The notes: generated by a model not told the origin, from the letters alone. Positions 2,646-61,012 are shown, counted from the stretch's first letter. The stretch is 64,000 nt of DNA from Minisyncoccota bacterium (GCA_035583355.1 DATEZQ010000012.1:24683-88682); one strand, 5' to 3'. Program-made: numbers and translations.

Positions 2646-3185
2646 ATGCGCATCGAAACGTTGCAAATTCCCAGCATTTTTCTCATCACCCCTCGCCTCC
2701 TGACCGACAATCGAGGAACGTTCGAGAAATCGTTCATCGCGAGTTTATTTAAGTCTCACGGCATGGATACAGAAATCCAGGAAGAATTTGCATCAACCTC
2801 CGAGAGCGGCGTCATCCGCGGAATGCACTTCCAATCGCCACCAATGGCGTGTGCAAAATATGTTTCCGTGACATCAGGAAGCATTCTCGACGTCGTACTC
2901 GACCTAAGGAGATCTGCATCAACGTACGGCACGCATATCACAATCTTGCTCAGTGCAGAAAATCACCAAATGCTTTATATCCCCCAGGGATTTGCTCATG
3001 GCTTTCTCGCCCTTGAAGACAAAACGGTCGTGCGTTATTTGCAGACGAGGGAGTTTTCACCCGACCACGACAAAGGGATTCACTTTGACTCCTTTGGTTG
3101 TGATTGGCAAGTAAGCAACCCCATCTTGTCGAATCGCGACAAGAGCCATCCCCCGCTTTCAGAGTTTGAAACTCCATTCAAGTAA
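2646..3185 (+). CDS. RmlC-like cupin sugar-nucleotide epimerase (dTDP-4-dehydrorhamnose 3,5-epimerase family; possibly CDP-hexulose 5-epimerase)
   Basis: ATG at 2646 is preceded by AAGGAG; the ORF track starts at 2604. It carries an RGMHFQ motif and size/conservation pattern like RmlC (RGLHFQ). Confidence 0.65.
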   Translation: MRIETLQIPSIFLITPRLLTDNRGTFEKSFIASLFKSHGMDTEIQEEFASTSESGVIRGMHFQSPPMACAKYVSVTSGSILDVVLDLRRSASTYGTHITILLSAENHQMLYIPQGFAHGFLALEDKTVVRYLQTREFSPDHDKGIHFDSFGCDWQVSNPILSNRDKSHPPLSEFETPFK

Positions 3186-3199
3186 TTCAGGGAGGTCAC

Positions 3200-4090
3200 A
3201 TGAAAATTCTAGTCACCGGAGCAACGGGTTTCATTGGCAGTAATCTTGTCGAACGATGCATTGAAAATGGCGACGAAATCACTGCACTCATTCGCCCTAC
3301 CACAAATACGACGAAACTCGACACTCGAGTGCGCACGCATAACTTCACGGGCGACATGTACTCAATCGAGGAACTCTTCGCAAAAAATTACTTCAACGGG
3401 GTGATTCACCTCGCGACGCATTTCCTAGCACAACATCGACCACAAGATATTACGCAACTCCTTGAGAGCAACATATCCTTCGGTACGAAGCTCTTGGATG
3501 TCGCCACGCGGCACGAAACGCCTTGGTTCATCAACACGAGTACGTTTGTGCAATACGCAGCAGACGGCACCTACGCCCCCATGAACCTGTATGCGGCGAC
3601 AAAGCAAGCATTTGCGGATATTGTGCGCTACTACGCAGAAACCTCACCGACGACAATCATTGACATCACACTCTTTGACACGTTCGGGAAGGGCGATACC
3701 CGCAGAAAGCTCGCGAATATCCTCCTTGAGGCTGCACAGAAGAAAATGCCACTTGATATGTCTCCGGGCGAACAGATCCTCGACATCAGCCCCATCGAGA
3801 ACATCATCGACGGATTCGAGAGGATGCTTGAGTTACTTTCAAGTCCAGCGCAGACCAATCTTCGAGGAAAGTCATTCGTGCTCTCGTCAGGGGAACAAAT
3901 GACATTGCGTGACTTCGTGGCGCTCTTTGGTCGCATTTGTGGCCACCCCATCGATGCGCGATTTGGCGCCTTGAACTACCGTCCAAGAGAAATCATGCTT
4001 CCACTACAGCATGGACTTATTGTCCCAGGATGGGAGCCACGACTCACCCTTGAGGAAGCACTGACTTCCTTTATCGGTGTGCAGAAATAA
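3200..4090 (+). CDS. NAD-dependent epimerase/dehydratase (SDR); candidate 4-reductase of the CDP-deoxyhexose pathway
   Basis: MKILVTGATGFIGSNLV Rossmann motif, 296 aa, GGAGG RBS. Confidence 0.65.
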   Translation: MKILVTGATGFIGSNLVERCIENGDEITALIRPTTNTTKLDTRVRTHNFTGDMYSIEELFAKNYFNGVIHLATHFLAQHRPQDITQLLESNISFGTKLLDVATRHETPWFINTSTFVQYAADGTYAPMNLYAATKQAFADIVRYYAETSPTTIIDITLFDTFGKGDTRRKLANILLEAAQKKMPLDMSPGEQILDISPIENIIDGFERMLELLSSPAQTNLRGKSFVLSSGEQMTLRDFVALFGRICGHPIDARFGALNYRPREIMLPLQHGLIVPGWEPRLTLEEALTSFIGVQK

Positions 4091-22789: not shown

Positions 22790-23470
22790 CTACATTTGAT
22801 TGATTGCGACCACGAATTCACCTCGGACTTTGTCCGGATGGGCAGCGTAATAGGCACGCACTTCCGCTGCGGTACCAATCTGTACTTCCTCAAACATTTT
22901 TGTGAGTTCTCGGCAGGCCGCAACTTTCCGATCTGCGGGAAGATACTTCTCGAGCGACTCAAGTGTCTTTTCGATACGGTGCGGAGATTCGTAAAATACT
23001 ATCGTGCGCTCTGTTTCTGCTATTTCTTTAAAGAGTGTCTCTCTCCCCTTCTTGTGCGGGAGAAAACCGAGAAAAAGAAACTGTGCTGAAGAGAATCCTG
23101 TCGAGACAAGCGCGGTGAGGAGTGCGGAAGCACCCGGAATTGCAATCACCTGCACGTCGGGCAGATGCTCACGTACAAGCTGGACAAGGAGTACCCCAGG
23201 ATCTGAAAGCGTCGGAGTGCCCGCATCAGATACAAGTGCGAGATCTTGACCGTCACGGAGAAGCTCAAGGATATCATCATGTTTCCCTGAACTACTCTGT
23301 GCGTGGTAGCTCATCGTCGGTACATGGATATCATATTTCGCGAGCAGATTCCTCGTCACGCGCGTGTCCTCACAAAGGATCTTATTGACCGATTTGAGGA
23401 CATTTAGCGCCCGCAGCGTGATATCTTCGAGGTTGCCAATTGGAGTAGAGACTATATATAGTGTCGCCAT
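22790..23470 (-). CDS. rsmI: 16S rRNA (cytidine1402-2'-O)-methyltransferase RsmI
   Basis: LYIVSTPIGNLEDITLRAL...ILCEDTRVT motif of the tetrapyrrole-methylase-fold RsmI. Confidence 0.85.
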   Translation of the reverse strand: MATLYIVSTPIGNLEDITLRALNVLKSVNKILCEDTRVTRNLLAKYDIHVPTMSYHAQSSSGKHDDILELLRDGQDLALVSDAGTPTLSDPGVLLVQLVREHLPDVQVIAIPGASALLTALVSTGFSSAQFLFLGFLPHKKGRETLFKEIAETERTIVFYESPHRIEKTLESLEKYLPADRKVAACRELTKMFEEVQIGTAAEVRAYYAAHPDKVRGEFVVAINQM

Positions 23471-23568
23471 AGAGGCATGTTAGCACAATATCCCAATAAT
23501 CAAAAACAAATATTGTGTGCTAAAAAACTCATATTTGTACACATTGTGCGCATGCCAAGACTCGAACT

Positions 23569-23692
23569 TTCTCGTCTTTACCCGTGAACGACTCAGCGCA
23601 GCTGAATCGTGAGTTGATAGCCGCACGGTGGCGCGACCTTGTCGGGCAAGCCAGCCCCGGTGCCCGAAGGGCCTGGCTTTTCAGTGATGCGC
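23569..23692 (-). ncRNA. structured repeat element, copy A (unclassified family)
   Basis: Shares the core GTCGCGCCACCG(Y)GCG(K)C(W)ATCAACTC plus downstream hairpins with copies B (23756-23850) and E (26871-27010). Hairpin stems differ by compensatory changes. Confidence 0.35.
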
Positions 23693-23755
23693 AAATAAAA
23701 AAGCCTTAAATAGATTCATTGATTTACAAGGTGCGCATGCCAAGACTCGAACTTG

Positions 23756-23850
23756 GGACCTCGTTTTACTGGATAGGGCTAGTGCGCAGCAATAGCCCGA
23801 GTTGATTGCCGCGCGGTGGCGCGACCTTGACCAGCAAGCGAGCCTGGTGT
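23756..23850 (-). ncRNA. structured repeat element, copy B
   Basis: Same conserved core. Hairpin GGGCTA-TTGCTGCGCAC-TAGCCC versus AAGCCA-CTGCTGCGCAT-TGGCTT in copy E, indicating covariation. Confidence 0.35.
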
Positions 23851-23883
23851 AAAGAAAAATCCCTATCAAATATTTATGTTCAA

Positions 23884-23959
23884 GGTGCGCATGCCAAGAC
23901 TCGAACTTGGGACCTCGTCATTATCAGTGACGCGCTCTAACCACCTGAGCTACACGCGC
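23884..23959 (-). tRNA. tRNA-Ile (anticodon GAT)
   Basis: The reverse complement folds as a cloverleaf. Acceptor GCGCGTG/CATGCGC, D-arm GCTC-AGGTGGTTA-GAGC, anticodon arm CGTCA-CTGATAA-TGACG, T-arm CCAAG-TTCGAGT-CTTGG, discriminator A. Confidence 0.8.
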
Positions 23960-24010
23960 ACTTTGAACACAAATATTTAATTGGGATCGATTTTTCTTTA
24001 CCTCGCTTTT

Positions 24011-24047
24011 CAGTGACGCGCTCTAACCACCTGAGCTACACGCGCAC
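24011..24047 (-). other. tRNA-Ile(GAT) 5'-half fragment (acceptor 5' strand to anticodon loop)
   Basis: 37 nt identical to positions 1-37 of the adjacent tRNA-Ile, followed by diverged sequence (CACTGAAAAGCGAGG). Confidence 0.6.
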
Positions 24048-24217
24048 TTTGTAAACCAATGAATATATTTAAGACCTAAATCACTCGCTTTCGCGTAGAG
24101 GCAATATACCAAAAATTCAGTGGAAACGCAATAGGTAAAGGCGCAATTCAGGATTACCCTTGACGCACTAATCTGGTCTGTTATGGTTAAAACAGAACTT
24201 CACCACAAGGAGTCCAT

Positions 24218-24553
24218 ATGGACAACCCCTCACTGCTCCTTTCAGGACTTCGCCTCAACAAAGCCCTCCAAGTTTGTGCTCCCGAAGAGCACAAAGCACT
24301 ACACCGAGCGATTGAAAAATTACTCGAAAGTGCAGGCCTCGAGCGCCCTCCCGGGAAAGAGTATGTCGTCACACTGACTGAAATACTCACCACGAGAGAA
24401 ATCACTGGGTCAGTTCGTGGAATGGTGACACTCGACCTTGCGCTCGACGGATTCTTCGATGCGCTCTTCAAGTTTACCCAGAACCGCTCGGACATCAGCG
24501 CGCTTTGCTGCGCTATCGGCCTCTACCGCTCGCGGATCAATCCGCGATCCTAA
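24218..24553 (+). CDS. hypothetical protein
   Basis: 111-aa ORF with AAGGAG RBS, followed by intrinsic terminator 24550-24583. Confidence 0.45.
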   Translation: MDNPSLLLSGLRLNKALQVCAPEEHKALHRAIEKLLESAGLERPPGKEYVVTLTEILTTREITGSVRGMVTLDLALDGFFDALFKFTQNRSDISALCCAIGLYRSRINPRS

Positions 24554-24583
24554 TCAAAAGCCCCATACGTGGGGCTTTTTCTC
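24550..24583. terminator. bidirectional rho-independent terminator
   Basis: aaagccccatacgtggggcttttt hairpin between convergent ORFs. Confidence 0.6.
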
Positions 24584-24585
24584 TA

Positions 24586-25044
24586 TCACGAACGAATGAT
24601 GAGTTCCGGGAATTGTGCTTGTACGAGCGCTGCAGTGCGCTTGCGATTTTCTTCTGCACCAAACTCACTACTCTTACCTTGCACCGCCCACTGCATATCT
24701 TTATCAACATAGGGATCGATCTTTTCAAAATAGCCTCCACCAATACAAGTCACCTTCTCACCCAATTCACCCCCAAGGATATTTACAATATCAGAGTGCA
24801 ATTCTGCCCTCCTGCGCGGAAGCGTAGCAAACAACTCTTCTCCTGTTGCTGTGCGTACAATAACATACTTCCCATCCACAGGCCCCTCATCCTCTTCTGC
24901 AAAATGATAAAAACTAAGCTCGGGCACTACCTCCTTCACTTCGTGCTTCACGTCCTCCTCTGCATTAAGCATCTGCCCTTCAGACACCTCTTCATTTCCT
25001 ATTCTTTCCATCCTGTAATTGTAGCATATACGGTTATTGTGCAT
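24586..25044 (-). CDS. hypothetical acidic protein
   Basis: 152-aa ORF (the alternative start MERIGNEE is 11 codons in); no recognised domain. Confidence 0.35.
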   Translation of the reverse strand: MHNNRICYNYRMERIGNEEVSEGQMLNAEEDVKHEVKEVVPELSFYHFAEEDEGPVDGKYVIVRTATGEELFATLPRRRAELHSDIVNILGGELGEKVTCIGGGYFEKIDPYVDKDMQWAVQGKSSEFGAEENRKRTAALVQAQFPELIIRS

Positions 25045-25137
25045 ACAAATTCTCGCTAGCCAAAGTACACACTTTGCTTGACATTTAATACAACTATGTC
25101 ATAATTTCCATAGACCACATTTCAACAAGGAGACACC

Positions 25138-25545
25138 ATGTCCACCAGTGATTCGCCCGCTCTCGTCAACACAAGGGATTTCCTCGCCAAGCAAGTTCGT
25201 GCACTGCTCATCTGCCTCGCCGTGCTCACAGCAATCCTCCTCCTCGGTCGACCCGACGGAAGGCATCTTTTCCTGCTGGCGCTCTGGGGATTCACCATGT
25301 TTTTTACCTTTAGCGCGACGGCCGGCTTCATCGCAAATCTCATCTCCATCACAGTCCTACTGACTGGCGGAGAAGTGCATCGTAAGACGATACATGCGTT
25401 CACTGCGATTCTGTCTGTCTTCATCGCAATCACTGCGAGCGTGCTGTTCACTACCCTCCTCGGGAAACCAGCTAACCCCACAATCGCCTTCTTCATGATC
25501 ATCTTCGCGGAGCTCGCTGCACACATCAGTGCATTTCAGGACTAG
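25138..25545 (+). CDS. hypothetical membrane protein
   Basis: AAGGAG RBS and three to four hydrophobic helices. Terminator caaaaacgcccacccgggcgtttttt follows at 25555-25585. Confidence 0.45.
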   Translation: MSTSDSPALVNTRDFLAKQVRALLICLAVLTAILLLGRPDGRHLFLLALWGFTMFFTFSATAGFIANLISITVLLTGGEVHRKTIHAFTAILSVFIAITASVLFTTLLGKPANPTIAFFMIIFAELAAHISAFQD

Positions 25546-25609
25546 CTCCCCCTCCCCAAAAACGCCCACCCGGGCGTTTTTTCTTTTACACTCTCTTCGA
25601 CATTATGAC

Positions 25610-26680
25610 CTAATCGCCCGTATCATACTTTTCGAGATACGTATTTAGTTGTCTGTTAACCATGATGAAGGTTGCGCGCTTTGGGAGCTCCTTGAGGAAG
25701 CTTGCGCCAAGATAGGTTGCAGTGCTACGCAACGCACCAAGGAGATCCTGAACGAAAATATGCAGATCTCCCTTGTGGGGAAGCAGTACATAGCGCCCCT
25801 CGCTCGCACGATGCGCATCTTTTTTCCCATAATGTTCGATCATTGCCTTATTTGAAGAGGAGCCGAAATACTCCTTATAGAGCTTTCCATTCTTCTCGAC
25901 TGTTTCTCCCCCACTCTGTTCAAATCCTGAAAAGAGTGAGCCGCACATATTGAAATCAGCACCACCACAAAATGCTTTTGCGATGTCGGAGATATATTGC
26001 TGTCCGCCATCGGCAATGATTCTCCCCACTCCTTGTGCATTTCGAATACCGTGCGCTGCATCCGCGCATTCAATGACCGCAGAGAGTTGCGGATAACCGA
26101 CACCGGTCATGCGCCTAGTAGTACATGCGGCACCTGAGCCAATACCTACCTTAACGATATCCGCACCCGAGAGAATGATCTCTTCAGCCATTTCGTTGGT
26201 CACGATATTCCCTGCGACGATGATATGTTCAGGAAACATTGCACGCACTGACTTGATCGCATCGATGAAACGCTGCAAATATCCATTGGGCACGTCGAGA
26301 CAAATGAATGAAAAATTCTTCATGAGACCAGCGGCATCCATATCGCGGAGTTTCTGCATGTCTTCGTCTCGTATACCTAGGCTGTACGCAACATAATCAG
26401 GGTTATTGAATTGAGCAAAGAATTCCTTGAAATCATCCACCGTATAATACTTATGGAACGTTGTAATGATCTTATATTCTGAGAGCACCCTCGCCATCTC
26501 AAATGTCCCCGAAGAAGCCATGTTTGCGGTCATGATCGGCATACCAGTCCACTCCTTTGGCGAATGATAGAACGTAAACGTTCGCTCCAGTACAACGTCC
26601 TTTCGTGATTCGAGTGTACTTCGCTTTGGCTTGAGGAGTACATCTGCGTAATCCAACTTCATGTCATTATCTATGCGCAT
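25610..26680 (-). CDS. guaC: GMP reductase
   Basis: Near-collinear similarity to GuaC (MRIxxDxKLxxxDVLxxPKRSTLxSRxDVxLERxFTF ... GADIVKVGIGSGAACTTRRMTGVGYPQLSAVIECADAAHG). Confidence 0.8.
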   Translation of the reverse strand: MRIDNDMKLDYADVLLKPKRSTLESRKDVVLERTFTFYHSPKEWTGMPIMTANMASSGTFEMARVLSEYKIITTFHKYYTVDDFKEFFAQFNNPDYVAYSLGIRDEDMQKLRDMDAAGLMKNFSFICLDVPNGYLQRFIDAIKSVRAMFPEHIIVAGNIVTNEMAEEIILSGADIVKVGIGSGAACTTRRMTGVGYPQLSAVIECADAAHGIRNAQGVGRIIADGGQQYISDIAKAFCGGADFNMCGSLFSGFEQSGGETVEKNGKLYKEYFGSSSNKAMIEHYGKKDAHRASEGRYVLLPHKGDLHIFVQDLLGALRSTATYLGASFLKELPKRATFIMVNRQLNTYLEKYDTGD

Positions 26681-26870
26681 ATATCGCCATTATAGCAGTT
26701 GCGGCAAAAGAAAACATGTAAAAACCTACCGCAATCATGAAATACAACATGTAAAGCCCCCATTCATCGAGTATTTAAATATTTGAAAATTTCAAAAATT
26801 TAATAAAAACCATCCAGTTCTTCCCTACTTTGAATCTAGGCGTATGCAAGTACTTGATCAATTCTTGATG

Positions 26871-27010
26871 TCTACCCGTGAACGACTCAGCGCATGAAAT
26901 TCTCTATCGGAAAAAGCCAATGCGCAGCAGTGGCTTGAGTTGATAGACGCGCGGTGGCGCGACTCCTACCGGTATCAGCGCCTGGTGCCGAGTTCTCGAG
27001 GCCGCTGATA
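26871..27010 (-). ncRNA. structured repeat element, copy E (in 16S downstream spacer)
   Basis: Same core and loop motif CTGCTGCGCA. It shares TGCGCTGAGTCGTTCACGGGTA with copy A. It is present in only one of two duplicated spacer units. Confidence 0.35.
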
Positions 27011-27384
27011 TTGCCTCATTTTACTTCAAATAGCGAGACGTTCCCAAAGGGAACGCCCCGAGCGTTGAGAATTCCCATAACCAATATTTAAACATTTGAA
27101 AATTTAAATATTTAACAAAAAGAAAAACACCCTTCCGGGTATTTCTTTACATTGACTACTGAGTGTTACGCAAGTTCTTAATCAATTCTTGATTCACTAT
27201 CAAGATAAGGTTGGAGAATATAAAATTCTCTATTGCCTCATTTTACCCCCTCGCTAACGTATTTGCGAGGAAATCCGACGTGCGACACCAGCACGTTAGG
27301 TCATGACTTAAATGGAATTTCATGATATCCATGTTTCTTGAAGAAACAATCGACGATCAGTGATCATATAAATATGAATCACGC

Positions 27385-28898
<1,514 letters not shown>

Positions 28899-29417
28899 TA
28901 ATTAAAAGTAAAATGAGACAAGAGAGAACTTTCTTTCTTGACCCAACTTTCAATGCTCTTGATTATTACTGTGTTATCGATTACTCGATTTCTCAAAACT
29001 GGAATTACAAATTGATTATGAAATTTGTTATTTTGGTCATTGCCTTTCGTATTACTCATACGGCAGGTTTGACCAGGATCTTGCGTAACACTCAGTTGTC
29101 AAAGTTCTTTACGTCTTTTCGGGGTTTTTGCTTTCGCTGAACTTCGATTGACGTAAGATGCAGTATATACGAATGCCAGGAATAGTCAAGCGATTTCTCC
29201 CCTTTCTTTTTACTGCCCTAGGACTTTATCACACTGAAATACCTATGTCAATACCTTTCTGTTAGTCACTCTATAGAGTACTTTCATAAGCATACTGACT
29301 GACCATTTGAACCACCCTACGCACCTGCATTTCCTCTCCATATATATGTATGTTTGCTGGTGCAAATTCCATGCAGCTGAGCATGAGAAAAACAAAAAGA
29401 ACGCTCATGCGTTCTTT

Positions 29418-39797: not shown

Positions 39798-41564
39798 CTA
39801 ATCAATTTCACTGTATACGACTTCCCTAAGGAATCTATCTTTTCGAGTAAACGTTGCCCTGGTATGCGCCTGTATGTCGAGCTTGATTTCTTTAGTCCTC
39901 TCTTCATTCTCAATTTTATCCCTATTTAACGTAAGAATATATTGAAAGTTTGACTTTTCCTCTTGCTCTGCGAGAAAATTAAGGCTCTGCACTAGCGTAT
40001 CTTGGTCCACATCAAAAATATTATCATGCACCAATATTGATGGATGTCGCTTCTTCGTATGATTATTAATCATCAATGCAATGTCATAAATAAATACCTT
40101 TTCCCTATCAACGCTATGACTCCCATCTTCAGGAATACGAAAATCGAATTGAACAATTTTTTTACCCTTACCAGACTTTACCGCGGATATATCAAAAGTA
40201 ATTTTGGCATTGCCCATTATATACGAGTGAATATCAGCAAGTGTCCTGTTGAAATCATCGATAACGCTGTTGTAGGACATTATTTCATCTTCAAGGGCAG
40301 ACACGTAGCCATCTCTCTTGCGTTTTAAGACGTTTATCTCATACTCAACACTCTCATGTTCACGCAAATTTGCTTGAGTAATTGATAAATTTTCTTTCCT
40401 CCTAGACATTAATGCGTAACTTTCTTTTAATGAATCAAGGGAACCATTGAAATTTATCATCACAAGCAATGACGACCTTCTCGCGTCTAAAACACTCAAA
40501 CGACTCTGGATTTTTTGCACCTCACTTCTAATCTCGTGAGCACGACCGTCTATAAGGATCTTTTGATAATTCTCAATTTTTTGCTTAAACGCGACAACAT
40601 CACTAATTGACCTTGCAACCAAATCACCAAGCCCCTTTGCAAATTTGTTATACACAAATTGAACTTCGCTAGTATCAATAATTTCCAACTTAGGTATAGA
40701 TTCAATTCTCTGAAGTTCAAACCTTAATGCCGCCCTCTTAATTCGCAGCTGTTCACATTCTAAATCAATATTCCCAAGCTCCTCTTGGTTATTTTGGAAA
40801 ATTGGTTCCATCTTATATTCATCAAGAAGTGAGTTTATTTTTCCGAGCTCAAGCTCAGAATCATTAACTTCGGCCTTGATGTCAGAAATATTTTGATTCC
40901 CAGAACCAGTCAACCTTTTTGTAATATGATTTTTAGTTTTCTGCTTTTCATCAATTTCCTTAAATACCTTTTTTATTCTCCTTATATAGCTAGGATTAAT
41001 TCCGAAAAGGTATAAATGTGGCTTGGTGAGATCTTGGTCAGGGATCTTTTCCCTCAAATCGTAGCAATTTAAAATACTCTTAAATTCTGAATCCTCAGAC
41101 CGTATTAATGGGCCCATAAACTCTCTGAAACTCGGCCTTTCTATATCATCTCCTGAATTGCTGAAAAGCAAATTTCCTAGGTAGGTAGTCGCATCTGCCA
41201 TATTCTTAAACTTTGTAATCTGGCCCTCACATACAATTTCCGGCTTATTCGGCTCTTTTATGGTTCTCCTCAATGTTAACTCCTTCCCGCCGATTGAAAC
41301 GTCAAGACAAATTATTGCGTTATGCGAAAATTTATCAAGCGGGATTTTCATAACCCTGCTATCACTCGAGTCCTTTAAAAGGCAAAAGTTGATAAATTCG
41401 ACTGAGAGCGACTTTCCGACTCCATTTGTTTTTTTATCCTTCCTGGACGTAGACCTTGATTCTGAATCCGGGACCTTCTCTCCAAGAATAATATTTATAC
41501 CATCATAAAAACTGATGGGCTTGAAAGTCTCTGGTTGGCTATATAGCTTATGTAGACGAATCAT
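39798..41564 (-). CDS. SMC/ABC-type ATPase (ABC-three-component-like / DUF2326-like) with coiled-coil insert
   Basis: N-terminal P-loop KKTNGVGKSLSVEF (xxNGxGKS), then about 300 aa of coiled-coil-like sequence. The C-terminal region has a Walker-B-like SILVHDNIFDVD with D-loop. The start overlaps the upstream stop. Confidence 0.5.
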   Translation of the reverse strand: MIRLHKLYSQPETFKPISFYDGINIILGEKVPDSESRSTSRKDKKTNGVGKSLSVEFINFCLLKDSSDSRVMKIPLDKFSHNAIICLDVSIGGKELTLRRTIKEPNKPEIVCEGQITKFKNMADATTYLGNLLFSNSGDDIERPSFREFMGPLIRSEDSEFKSILNCYDLREKIPDQDLTKPHLYLFGINPSYIRRIKKVFKEIDEKQKTKNHITKRLTGSGNQNISDIKAEVNDSELELGKINSLLDEYKMEPIFQNNQEELGNIDLECEQLRIKRAALRFELQRIESIPKLEIIDTSEVQFVYNKFAKGLGDLVARSISDVVAFKQKIENYQKILIDGRAHEIRSEVQKIQSRLSVLDARRSSLLVMINFNGSLDSLKESYALMSRRKENLSITQANLREHESVEYEINVLKRKRDGYVSALEDEIMSYNSVIDDFNRTLADIHSYIMGNAKITFDISAVKSGKGKKIVQFDFRIPEDGSHSVDREKVFIYDIALMINNHTKKRHPSILVHDNIFDVDQDTLVQSLNFLAEQEEKSNFQYILTLNRDKIENEERTKEIKLDIQAHTRATFTRKDRFLREVVYSEID

Positions 41565-41782
41565 ATCTTGAAAATATAAGGCTCCGAAAAATCAACTACT
41601 CCAGATTGATATAGAAATATCAAAGTAAAAATCAATTGGCGATGATTAACTAAACCAACTTGATCTTTCAAACTCAAAACAAGCTCATCGAGGGTGATTT
41701 TTTTTCTTTTTTGAATTCTCTTCAAAATAAGAAACCCTAGATAAGGGGGCGAAACTCCTATTTTTTCATCTTTTGTAATCAT
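41561..41782 (-). CDS. small hypothetical protein (73 aa), middle gene of three-gene cassette
   Basis: Both ends overlap its neighbours by 4 nt (ATGA), indicating translational coupling. Confidence 0.4.
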   Translation of the reverse strand: MITKDEKIGVSPPYLGFLILKRIQKRKKITLDELVLSLKDQVGLVNHRQLIFTLIFLYQSGVVDFSEPYIFKI

Positions 41783-42738
41783 GGAGCGTTCGGGAAAACA
41801 TTACACTTCACCAATTCGTCGAGTAAGTAAAACCTGATTGCCTGATAATCATACTTTTTCTTTGAATTTTTGGAAATTTCATTCTCGAAATATTCAGTGA
41901 GATTAACAAGTGCAACCTCCGCATCCCCATCAGCCTGGGTAAGAAAATCATCACTTCTAATTCGTAGAAAATTCCTCATATACTCGACCTTGGCAGTATC
42001 AAGGCCTAAGGCTCTATCGACTTCAACTCTTGCTGCGCAGTAAATAGGAAGAAGAGAGACTAGTTGCGATTTTAGAAATTCAGATTTCGAAGAGAATCGC
42101 TGCTCGATTTTCCCCTGAGGGTCTGGCTCCTCGCGATACTGTCCATTCGTTAATTCCTTTTTTTCACTAATGTACAGAACCAAATCTGCGATAGTCTCAA
42201 CCTCAGATGCAATTTTGTTTTCAGTTTTAGAATGAGAGCCACCCGAAAATTCCTCCTCAAAAATTTGTAAAATCCTCATGATCTCCCCAGGGGATCCTTT
42301 TGCCCGAACTAAACCTAAGATATCTGTCAAATCCATAATATCCCCTGAATCAAACTTTATTCCTTTAGGGGCAGTAATTGATTTAATTTTACGCTTTTTA
42401 TCTGCAATAATAATAAATTTCAATGTATCATACGAGGAAGAAAGCCCATTGGCGTCAAAAGCTTTTATTGTTTTATCAATTTTTGTTTTACTATTCTCGG
42501 ATGTAACTTGAACGGAAACGCGTTTCTCTTCATCCCCCAGGTCAATAGAGGGGAAGTTCATTCTTAGAATATTTTTATTTTCGAGATTTAAAGCGAGAAT
42601 TTCATTAAGCAGGCGACAGAAAAAATCTTCTAGGTGACTATTTATATCCGTTAGGCCATTTCCATTACTTATCTTAGTTTGCACTTTTATGCGAGCAAGA
42701 TATGCTGTCACCTCATTAATTAAATCTTGCCTATCCAT
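41779..42738 (-). CDS. SMEK-like domain protein (first gene of cassette)
   Basis: The N-terminal region EVTAYLARIKV...LTDINSHLEDFFCRLLNEILALNL...MNFPSIDLGDEEKRVSVQVTS resembles, from memory, N-termini annotated as SMEK domain in ABC-three-component-type conflict systems. Confidence 0.35.
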   Translation of the reverse strand: MDRQDLINEVTAYLARIKVQTKISNGNGLTDINSHLEDFFCRLLNEILALNLENKNILRMNFPSIDLGDEEKRVSVQVTSENSKTKIDKTIKAFDANGLSSSYDTLKFIIIADKKRKIKSITAPKGIKFDSGDIMDLTDILGLVRAKGSPGEIMRILQIFEEEFSGGSHSKTENKIASEVETIADLVLYISEKKELTNGQYREEPDPQGKIEQRFSSKSEFLKSQLVSLLPIYCAARVEVDRALGLDTAKVEYMRNFLRIRSDDFLTQADGDAEVALVNLTEYFENEISKNSKKKYDYQAIRFYLLDELVKCNVFPNAP

Positions 42739-60118: not shown

Positions 60119-60589
60119 ATGTCTTCCATCCACAACTTTGAAGAGCTCGCTATGTGGCAAAAAGCACGCCTACTTACCAAGGGTGTATATATCGCACTAC
60201 GAGAATGCCGCGATGGTGGATACAAAGACCAAATACAGAGAGCGAGTGTTTCGGTCATGAGCAACATTGCGGAGGGATTCGAGCGGGGAACGAAAAATGA
60301 ATTTATTAATTATCTCTATATCGCAAAAGGGTCTGCGGGTGAAGTACGTGCGCAGCTCTATGCAGGGCTTGATATCGGATATTTAAATATTGAAACATTT
60401 GAATATTTAAAGGATCTCGCGACGCAATGCTCAAAGCTCATACATTCGTTCACGGAAAAAGTAAAAGCGAATGATAGAAGCGGCATTCAATACAAACGCC
60501 CAGAATACATAGACCCGATGGAATCCATTACGAAGGAGCATGATCCGGCGTTGTGGGAAAAGCTGTATGGGAAGAAAGGGTCTACATAA
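60119..60589 (+). CDS. four-helix-bundle protein (23S rRNA intervening-sequence protein family)
   Basis: Signature WQKARLLTKGVY...QIQRASVSVMSNIAEGFERGTKNEFINYLYIAKGSAGEVRAQL. Confidence 0.65.
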   Translation: MSSIHNFEELAMWQKARLLTKGVYIALRECRDGGYKDQIQRASVSVMSNIAEGFERGTKNEFINYLYIAKGSAGEVRAQLYAGLDIGYLNIETFEYLKDLATQCSKLIHSFTEKVKANDRSGIQYKRPEYIDPMESITKEHDPALWEKLYGKKGST

Positions 60590-60627
60590 AACCAAGGAAA
60601 TGCTTTCGCATTTCCTTGGTTATTTTG

Positions 60628-60676
60628 TCCATCCAGCACGACTCGAACGTGCGACCGGCCGTGTATAACATCGGCC
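60628..60676 (-). other. partial tRNA 3' copy (anticodon arm through acceptor 3' strand), diverged from adjacent tRNA-Ile(TAT)
   Basis: TTATACACGGCC-GGTC-GCACG-TTCGAGT-CGTGC-TGGATGG parallels the 3' two-thirds of the neighbouring tRNA. It lacks a D-arm and a matching 5' acceptor strand. Confidence 0.45.
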
Positions 60677-60682
60677 ATTTTG

Positions 60683-60755
60683 TCCGCCCTGCAGGACTCG
60701 AACCTGCGACCAGTCGTGTATAAGACGACCGCTCTACCAACTGAGCTAAGGGCGG
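60683..60755 (-). tRNA. tRNA-Ile (anticodon TAT; AUA-decoding)
   Basis: The reverse complement folds as a clean 73-nt cloverleaf. Acceptor CCGCCCT/AGGGCGG (C1:G72), D-arm GCTC-AGTTGGTA-GAGC, anticodon arm GTCGT-CTTATAC-ACGAC, T-arm GCAGG-TTCGAGT-CCTGC, discriminator A. Confidence 0.6.
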
Positions 60756-61012
60756 ATATATTTGAGAAAGGGCGGACAATGACGCCAGGCGATGTTGCTG
60801 GTCACAGTCTCGCCACCGCGAGGCAAATCAACTCACGGTAATGCATACATTACCGTTTTCCAGTAAGACGCTGCACCTTATTTGCGAAAGAATACCTCGA
60901 TTTCTCTTGGATGCTTTGTAGTTTAGCAGAATACGCAAACCTCGCAACCTGAATCCCCTCCCAATCCACACCCATACATCCTCCATAGTATTTTATGTTA
61001 TACTAATGGCAT

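Follow-up and report, generated by a model that had tools for sequence, protein, structure and literature searches.

A 64,000-nucleotide (nt) stretch of DNA from a Minisyncoccota bacterium (GCA_035583355.1 DATEZQ010000012.1:24683-88682), called the window below and numbered from its first letter, contains several related structured repeats beside genes for isoleucine transfer RNA (tRNA-Ile) and behind its 16S ribosomal RNA (rRNA) gene, and this raises the question whether such repeats are functional RNA structures or mobile DNA. A preliminary description had listed three copies, A, B and E, with compensatory changes in their stems, and had left both possibilities standing. Additional copies, double changes in the helices and occurrence at four unrelated sites supported the existence of a structured family, and of the two possibilities the evidence leans towards mobility. 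We read the family as a lineage-restricted, non-autonomous small mobile element that depends on its fold, with a probability of about 0.45.

All three copies listed before were real, but the count was incomplete. The 27-nt core reported as common to A, B and E (GTCGCGCCACCGYGCGKCWATCAACTC) occurred three times on the minus strand, at 23611-23637, 23799-23825 and 26937-26963, while shuffled sequences were expected to contain none. A fourth copy, F, was detected by a composition-guided motif scan and confirmed with a covariance model. Since the next-best score in the window was 16 bits (E 0.1, filters off), the total is four copies (A, B, E and F) and one 22-nt remnant. A 22-mer (TGCGCTGAGTCGTTCACGGGTA) that had been taken as shared by A and E was indeed found twice (23579-23600 and 26873-26894; none expected in shuffles), but its occurrence next to E belongs to the remnant of another element. 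This assignment follows from a comparison with the related locus L092, in which a complete element (3163-3262) has the same position relative to ATCAAGAATTG as the remnant. The bounds first proposed for A, B and E did not hold and were replaced by those in Table 1. An identical copy of A was present in two independent Logan assemblies, L088 and L089, and the sequencing runs SRR5133178 and SRR5177929 contain the organism.

Each complete element follows the same order of parts when read in the sense of the host RNA. The 5' strand of helix Pa (6 nt) is followed by a variable inner hairpin, a conserved NCCRGG bulge and the Pa 3' strand, which the 5' strand of Pb (6 nt) adjoins directly; a 5-nt link then leads to Pc, a GC hairpin with a CNCC loop, and further to a joiner, (N)AUCAACU(C), the Pd hairpin with its conserved GC-UGC-GC tip, a 3-nt link and the Pb 3' strand, which forms the last 6 nt of the element. 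Complete elements are GC-rich, about 100 nt long (100-109 nt) and composed of four helices without a pseudoknot. Copy A contains Pa (AGCCAG/CTGGCT) with the inner hairpin GCCC-TTC-GGGC, Pb (TGCCCG/CGGGTA), Pc, the joiner and Pd (ACGATTCAGC/GCTGAGTCGT). Of the helices, Pc in the centre alone keeps its form; Pa and Pd differ from copy to copy and show no relation to one another.

Single-sequence folds yielded the family helices and bore out the earlier report of hairpin stems that differ between copies. RNAalifold, applied unguided to a plain MAFFT alignment of 11 copies, predicted Pb, Pd and two pairs of Pc, and in 10 of its 18 predicted pairs both partners change with the pairing retained. In the MAFFT alignment 83.7% of the cells of Pb, Pc and Pd were paired versus 35-51% with the partners slid by 1-3 columns, double changes affected 15 of the 24 pairs, and the covariation score was reached by 0/500 shuffles. 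A model-fitted alignment of 14 copies, including three on which the model had not been trained, gave 84.5% versus 36-47% and double compensatory changes in 17/24 pairs, figures that lean towards structure as the alignment was fitted to the model. The Pb variants were TGCCCG/CGGGTA, TGCTGG/CCAGTA, TGCCTG/CAGGTA, TGTCAG/CTGATA and TACCGG/CCGATA, with one conserved G.U next to the 3' end, and those of Pa were AGCCAG/CTGGCT, AGCGAG/CTCGCT, TCAGCG/CGCTGA, ACCGCG/CGCGGT, GGACCG/CGGTCC, AGCAAG/CTTGCT and AGCAAA/TTTGCT. The four-helix structure is not in doubt: the three model helices as well as Pa covary far beyond the slid-partner controls, which disposes of a segmental duplication without structure, one of the two outcomes named beforehand as damaging to the idea of a family. 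The Rfam search that had been proposed returned only tRNA and small-subunit (SSU) rRNA at the gathering threshold for the window and the related loci L090, L092, L095, L098, L099 and L101, and cmscan of 23400-27400 at E<=10 returned only tRNA. Judged by Rfam 15 and the searchable literature, the family is undescribed, and it was assigned to no known one.

The other damaging outcome, a lack of further copies, was contradicted within the window and in six related assemblies. Scans of sequence collections with the core pattern gave chance matches or nothing: 87 matches among species-representative genomes, all in high-GC non-Patescibacteria and judged chance on taxonomy alone; no match in one metagenome scan and three in another, chance matches that lacked a tRNA or model match; and no match in viral contigs. 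Relatives were therefore sought through homologues of RsmI, the gene of which adjoins copy A. The best homologues of this gene belonged to metagenome-assembled genomes of Paceibacterota, Yonathbacteria and Minisyncoccia, and the source of the window is a Patescibacteria (Paceibacteria-like) genome. Family elements were present in each of the loci L102, L090, L092, L103, L098, L099, L105 and L095, for which RsmI identity to the window was 95%, 93%, 88%, 81%, 80%, 80%, 76% and 74%, respectively. The covariance model that the preliminary description had called for (Pb, Pc and Pd, with Pa left out) was trained on 11 copies, excluding those of L103, L098-B and L095, and recovered 14 copies over seven assemblies, the window and six relatives, at E<1e-5.

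Because the Pa 3' and Pb 5' strands are contiguous, the two ends of the element pair side by side on one internal 12-mer. Pairing of the last 6 and the first 6 nt with this 12-mer was complete (12/12) in 7/10 full-length copies; six different 12-mers are represented among these seven, window A and L092 E having the same one. The elements occupy four unrelated sites and run in the direction of the host transcript at 4/4 of these. Site 1 is the anticodon loop of tRNA-Ile(GAU), at 37/38 or, owing to the TA ambiguity, 35/36 or 36/37. Here copy A of L092 lies between CACTGATA and ATGACGAGG, and its flanks rejoin to the exact tRNA (CTGATA to ATGACG, loop CTGATAA). The preliminary description had A and B fused to a tRNA-Ile 3' end, which is true of their 3' side but overlooks a tRNA junction on the 5' side: both are flanked on the left by the 5' strand of the anticodon stem and the loop and on the right by the sequence from the 3' strand of the anticodon stem through the acceptor end, and are therefore insertions in the anticodon loop. 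Site 2 is the loop of a 16S-trailer hairpin, TCTTGGT-AGTGA-ACCAAGA, of which the window retains only the remnant; site 3 lies in the 16S trailer between GGCAATA and GAGAAT; and site 4 follows the sua5 stop codon in L095, between GGATA and A.

The left flanks (CTGATA, TTGATA, GCAATA and GGATA, with GATA at three of four sites) end in ATA, or in AAA for window A and B, and the elements end in TA. TA is found on both sides at all sites; the 3' TA may belong to the element since it is part of the conserved helix Pb, in which it forms U-A and G.U pairs. In the window the left junctions of A (23679-23684) and B (24008-24013) both read CTGAAA, not CTGATA, which suggests gene conversion between copies within the genome.

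Filled sites could be compared with empty counterparts, and these comparisons favour mobility. Site 2 is filled in L092 (3163-3262) and empty elsewhere in the same locus (2990-3010 and around 3750). At site 3, copy E fills unit U2 of the 16S trailer while unit U1 is empty, in agreement with the earlier view that the third copy had entered one of two duplicated spacer units. The site is also filled in L098, by a copy that differs from E in nearly every helix with the pairing kept, holds a degenerate copy in L099, and is empty in U1 of every genome as well as in L092 and L103. At site 4, the element of L095 contrasts with a plain terminator hairpin in the homologous spacer of L101. The motif gaaattctct near E, which had been put forward as a possible target-site duplication, is homology between the duplicated units U1 and U2. 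Copies are, moreover, mosaic. In its 5' part, window A shares 88% identity with the 16S-trailer copy of L092 and 65% with the L092 copy at its own site, and the relation is reversed in its 3' part. Similarity is thus independent of position, so that copies swap segments or replace each other faster than the genomes diverge. Several copies are decaying, among them window F (truncated), those of L095 and L099 site 3, and L098-B and L103-B, which have lost the joiner motif.

What stands out most is a tRNA gene in an element that itself lies in a tRNA gene. Copy B is 241 nt long because a whole tRNA gene lies inside it, and this nested tRNA-Ile(GAU), which was missed when B was described merely as fused to a tRNA, is the sole complete copy at the locus. 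On the minus strand the outer flank is followed by the tRNA 5' half ending in CTGAAA, the Pa 5' strand, the 5' arm of a long helix, the complete tRNA-Ile, the 3' arm, ACCAGG, the Pa 3' strand, the Pb/Pc/Pd core, the tRNA 3' half, the outer flank and copy A in its truncated tRNA remnant. The outer 5' half ends at position 37, is identical to the intact gene at 33/33 positions and pairs with the outer 3' half in the minimum free energy (MFE) fold. This fold of the 338-nt composite (-138.5 kcal/mol, z = -6.7) contains the outer acceptor, D and T arms, the arm helix, the inner cloverleaf region and the core, and the duplex of the two arms alone reached -48.1 kcal/mol versus -17.4 +/- 3.6 kcal/mol for shuffles. 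The Pa pair of B is compensatory relative to AGCCAG/CTGGCT, AGCAAG/CTTGCT and AGCAAA/TTTGCT of other copies. Four genomes share the nested arrangement (window, L098, L103 and L105); in the latter three the outer halves are decaying and Pa and the arms are still complementary, with a compensatory G-C to A-T change in Pa between L098 (AGCAAG/CTTGCT) and L103 (AGCAAA/TTTGCT).

The sequence of tRNA-Ile(GAU) was identical among all related loci containing it, and the flanks of the intact genes of the clade extend the acceptor stem. The resulting helix had -27 to -54 kcal/mol versus about -15 +/- 3.5 kcal/mol for shuffles in all genomes but L105, the flanks of which pair weakly (-18.7 versus -12.9 +/- 3.0 kcal/mol). 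It spans about 15-45 bp and resembles an rRNA-type processing stem, and its sequences vary with complementarity kept (window, L090, L092, L098, L099, L103 and L105). In L090 and L099 the outer flanks of the window surround an uninterrupted tRNA-Ile, including the sequence of 23693-23729, which follows this tRNA and pairs with its upstream flank. Two readings apply to this difference: a tRNA-carrying element inserted and gave rise to the window-type locus, or the duplicated halves recombined and left an uninterrupted tRNA. L092 and L099 lack the 5' part but still have the 3' arm and the B core, the outcome expected of recombination between the two 5' halves. The truncated left flank of copy A was also found in L090, L092, L099 and L102. 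In the window the tRNA-Ile 3' end sequence occurs three times, and a repeat finder reported the tRNA 5' half as duplicated, with the left edge of copy A resembling the end of that half.

For the mobile element that we favour, we infer movement in trans, a single-stranded intermediate and, for B, a logic of carrying its own tRNA. The element would be moved by machinery that reads its single-strand fold, the nearest analogy being the single-stranded DNA 'peel-and-paste' by which IS200/IS605-type elements, themselves devoid of inverted termini, enter DNA on the 3' side of a short motif. Elements would recombine among themselves, and the B lineage could occupy and destroy a tRNA-Ile gene while supplying a replacement, because a complete tRNA-Ile(GAU) with its processing stem lies inside its Pa. 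The location of copies beyond terminator-like stems or in pseudo-tRNAs, which are safe havens, favours mobility, and the AUCA of the joiner is a lead as a guide for the target GAU that fits three of the four sites and not GGCAATA. Several points weigh against this reading. No gene for a transposase, integrase or reverse transcriptase was found, either in the 64 kb of the window or among genes called at the related loci. Terminal inverted repeats are lacking, as an element's first 10-15 nt are not complementary to its last 10-15, two similar end hairpins as in IS200/IS605 were not seen, and helices that vary between copies would be poor sites for a sequence-specific protein. The sampling covers a small clade, with collection scans no better than chance. 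Outside the conserved position in Pb, G.U (12) and A.C (13) cells were about equally frequent, and the strand specificity of the fold is thus not proven. Finally, E of the window and E of L098 are both well folded at the same site, although RsmI is only 80% identical, and this persistence fits long-term selection on the fold in place equally well as repeated replacement.

Some of these observations would also suit a new small class of RNA-level intron, transcribed with the host RNA, having its splice sites at the Pa/Pb stack and excised after UA either by itself or by a host nuclease and ligase. It would spread by reverse splicing or by homing with exon co-conversion, and the tRNA of B would be freed from the excised intron. 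Insertion exactly in the anticodon loop, at a position compatible with the canonical 37/38 given the TA ambiguity, co-orientation with the host transcript at all independent sites, termini juxtaposed on a guide-like 12-mer with a conserved G.U beside the 3' end, the outer cloverleaf arms retained in the composite MFE fold and the abundance of tRNA introns in Patescibacteria (PMC13011429) argue for such an intron, which we nevertheless hold to be unlikely. The interrupted tRNAs are 5'-truncated or damaged (anticodon stem, T stem or 5' half) in every genome, and every genome keeps an uninterrupted tRNA-Ile, so that splicing is not needed and apparently not relied upon; for the 16S-trailer and post-sua5 copies, which lie beyond the mature RNA or open reading frame, it would be purposeless. 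The element is also too small, lacks a group I core and an Rfam match at E<=10, cannot provide both a U at -1 and a terminal G, and allows no bulge-helix-bulge (BHB) to be drawn. Of similarly low probability is a combined form, in which an intron-like mobile RNA or DNA class homes to tRNA-Ile 37/38 through its end-abutting fold and the tRNA-capturing lineage acts as an addiction module, with excision that might proceed by a ribozyme or a bacterial nuclease-ligase pathway.

If the fold were instead a cis-acting module of stable-RNA precursors, serving for example docking or protection in the processing of tRNA-Ile and 16S rRNA, it would owe its retention to selection and its spread to local duplication and gene conversion, not transposition. 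All close-clade copies belong either to the tRNA-Ile(GAU) unit or to the 16S trailer and adjoin strands of processing stems, Pa continues the processing stem of the nested tRNA with a compensatory change even in the close pair L098 and L103, and the fold is conserved at the same sites over genomes with 76-95% RsmI identity. Such a module is rather improbable in view of the decay of several copies (L098-B, L103-B, L099 site 3, L095 and window F), the lack of a copy behind the 16S gene of L103, the position of A and E downstream of a terminator-like stem and T-run, the L095 copy behind a protein gene, and a similarity between copies that is independent of position. Least is to be said for passive leftovers, that is, remnants of integrase-mediated insertion at the tRNA-Ile 3' half combined with segmental duplications, in which neither function nor mobility depends on structure. 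Direct repeats of the tRNA 3' part are a classic footprint of tRNA-targeted integration, variable cassettes (PaaX-like in L092 and L102, Bro-N in L099) lie between the array and rsmI, and a plain duplicate from the anticodon arm to the 3' end stands behind tRNA-Ile(UAU). This explanation is very improbable and disfavoured by the slid-partner, shuffle and junction results, as it accounts neither for the double compensatory changes in 17 of 24 pairs nor for precise junctions after ATA and TA at four unrelated sites, and the element lies inside the anticodon loop, not beside an att core.

Comparison with known systems points in several directions. Group I introns are common in the tRNA genes of Patescibacteria, where they occur at 33/34 to 36/37, always with U before them and G at their end, and share with the elements the phylum, an anticodon-loop host, the orientation of the tRNA and an internal sequence that pairs with a terminus (PMC13011429). 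In contrast, the elements measure about 100 nt versus about 200-300 nt, have no P3-P9 core and no match to RF00028, use pseudogenes as hosts and also occur outside genes. A group I intron was rejected on the covariance model, size and the U/G boundary rule: at the junctions, with CTGATA before an element that runs from A to GGGTA and ATGACG behind it, the three TA registers give A/G, U/U and A/A, never U/G. Compatibility with 37/38 recalls archaeal and eukaryal tRNA introns, and the outer halves of B, joined by a long complementary helix, recall the split tRNAs of Nanoarchaeum; unlike in these, the host is a bacterium without a BHB, and the halves are decaying and flank an intact tRNA in cis. 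By inspection, the loop nucleotides 32-35 (CUGA) cannot pair with the CGGG before the 3' end, and a BHB intron was rejected; such pairing is also disfavoured because covariation pairs the 3' end with the internal Pb strand. We know of no splicing endonuclease for this organism, and neither a splicing endonuclease nor a ligase was seen in the 64-kb window.

The junction logic most resembles that of miniatures derived from IS200/IS605 (palindrome-associated transposable elements), which are moved by the Y1 HUH transposase TnpA. Both are about 100 nt long without terminal inverted repeats, fold as a single strand that has hairpins close to its ends, integrate on the 3' side of a short motif in fixed orientation and without clear target duplication, and carry a similar short motif at their own 3' end, paired to an internal guide. 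Unlike the similar end hairpins that TnpA binds, however, Pa and Pd are unrelated and vary freely, and a 6-bp guide pairing to the 3' end takes the place of 4-nt guides at each end, with ATA/GATA as target. A Y1 transposase was found neither in the window nor in the precomputed Pfam lists of related loci. Small size, GC-rich folds, multiple copies and insertion polymorphism are shared with the TA-duplicating Correia miniature inverted-repeat transposable elements (MITEs) of Neisseria and the GC clusters of yeast mitochondria (PMC4478555), and the TA at both junctions is ambiguous evidence of such a relation; the elements differ in the absence of terminal inverted repeats, a terminal TA placed in Pb and a strict orientation. 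An inverted-repeat (IS630/Tc1-like) MITE was rejected as the termini are not mutually complementary and pair with the internal 12-mer instead. Like bacterial rRNA intervening sequences (IVS), the elements are structured insertions at tips or strands of stable-RNA precursor helices and are sporadic among relatives, but IVS lie inside mature rRNA helices as single extended stems cut by RNase III, whereas the elements are branched and located in trailers or pseudo-tRNAs. Two further candidates were set aside. The strands of a hammerhead-like three-way junction (ACAAG, UAUCAACUC and UCA) do not match CUGAUGA, GAAA and UH, and the joiner AUCAACUC as a complement of the 16S 5' end is one base off register with the start of 16S, AGAGTTTGATCC, and was taken as coincidence.

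If mobile, the family would parasitize stable-RNA loci as a compact element defined by its fold, in genomes thought almost transposon-free, and B would be a natural example of a selfish insertion that brings a replacement for an essential tRNA gene. If excised as RNA, it would be a new type of bacterial tRNA intron at the archaeal/eukaryotic position, with a bearing on the origin of tRNA introns and split tRNAs. Element fragments confuse tRNA annotation, and element copies break assemblies at tRNA-Ile and 16S loci. An N run in L098 (3229-3369) lies inside the outer tRNA 5' half with the same 40 nt on both sides, and the 193-kb contig of L090 ends (at position 1) inside an element copy.

Table 1. 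Elements of the family in the window and the features that adjoin them.
Feature	Position	Strand	Remarks
Degenerate tRNA-Ile 3' half after copy A	23546..23578	-	
Copy A, complete 100-nt element	23579..23678	-	5' end 23678; covariance model 85.7 bits; fold z = -3.1 to -3.4
Copy A left flank, 5'-truncated tRNA remnant GCGCATCACTGAAA	23679..23692	-	anticodon-stem 5' strand and loop
3' strand of the outer tRNA's flanking helix and T-run	23693..23729	-	
Outer tRNA-Ile 3' half, AAACGAGG...GCGCACC	23730..23766	-	damaged anticodon-stem 3' strand
Copy B, whole element, 241 nt	23767..24007	-	5' end 24007; core covariance model 100.3 bits, E 2e-20
Copy B core	23767..23848	-	ACCAGG bulge, Pa 3', Pb TGCTGG/CCAGTA, Pc CGCGC-CACC-GCGCG, joiner AATCAACTC, Pd GGGCTA..TAGCCC
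3' arm of helix around nested tRNA	23849..23883	-	inverted repeat; fold
Intact tRNA-Ile(GAU), inside helix Pa of B	23884..23959	-	ARAGORN; Rfam tRNA 69 bits
5' arm of long helix (processing stem) around nested tRNA	23960..24001	-	inverted repeat
Copy B Pa 5' strand AGCGAG, 5' end of B	24002..24007	-	pairs with CTCGCT 23837-23842
Outer tRNA-Ile(GAU) 5' half	24008..24045	-	acceptor 5' strand, D arm, anticodon-stem 5' strand, loop CTGAAA
3' remnant of a second element	26873..26894	-	Pd 3' strand, linker, Pb 3' strand; identical to copy A 3' end
Copy E, complete 104-nt element	26905..27008	-	5' end 27008; after GGCAATA in 16S unit U2; covariance model 87.7 bits
U1, element-free 3' strand of 16S processing stem	27150..27262	-	context
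Copy F, 5'-truncated, begins at GCCAGG bulge	60784..60865	+	covariance model 74 bits, E 1e-14

The minus strand carries, in this order, the 16S rRNA gene (27389-28905), its trailer, four protein genes, the tRNA-Ile(GAU) locus (about 23546-24045) and rsmI. An Rfam scan found no 23S rRNA gene within the 64-kb window, and the 16S gene is solitary: the nearest 27 kb to one side of it and 35 kb to the other contain neither a 23S nor a 5S gene. tRNA-Ile(GAU), the normal place of which is the 16S-23S spacer, lies 3.4 kb downstream of the 16S gene, beyond the four protein genes (IMPDH/GMP-reductase-like, Ocnus-like and two small open reading frames). In the 16S trailer, the duplex of U1 with the 16S leader had -75.7 kcal/mol versus -35.1 +/- 3.8 kcal/mol for shuffles, and the elements occupy extra units (U2, and U3 and U4 in L092) behind a terminator-like hairpin; in L103 both the extra units and the elements are missing behind the 16S gene. 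Behind 16S there are two to four tandem units of the processing-stem 3' strand (window 26840-27262 and 28906-29110; L092 2950-3900; L098 1159-1560), every extra unit holds an element or element remnant, and units are more alike within than between genomes (concerted evolution).

Variable cassettes in the interval from the tRNA-Ile array to rsmI give this locus the look of an integration hotspot. L092 (9200-9990) and L102 (120-900) have a PaaX-like gene there, which in L102 lies between perfect palindromes about 40 nt long (GCACATTGCTCAAATGCGACGGCCGTCGCATTTCAGCAATGTGC); in L099 (8560-9900) the cassette is a gene with a Bro-N domain, and the window has no cassette. Copy F, in which a compensatory U-A replaces a G-C pair of Pc, is followed by an internally deleted 3' half of tRNA-Ile(GAU) and adjoins tRNA-Ile(UAU) (60682-60755, minus strand). 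Behind the latter, at about 60625-60680, its anticodon arm, T arm and acceptor 3' strand recur in diverged form, a duplicate that is a footprint of integration at the tRNA, and a nearby gene (60119-60589, plus strand) belongs to the '23S rRNA intervening sequence protein' family (PF05635, E 3e-30). Further away, at 39798-42738, neighbouring genes with DUF2326 and SMEK_N domains recall defence or abortive-infection modules.

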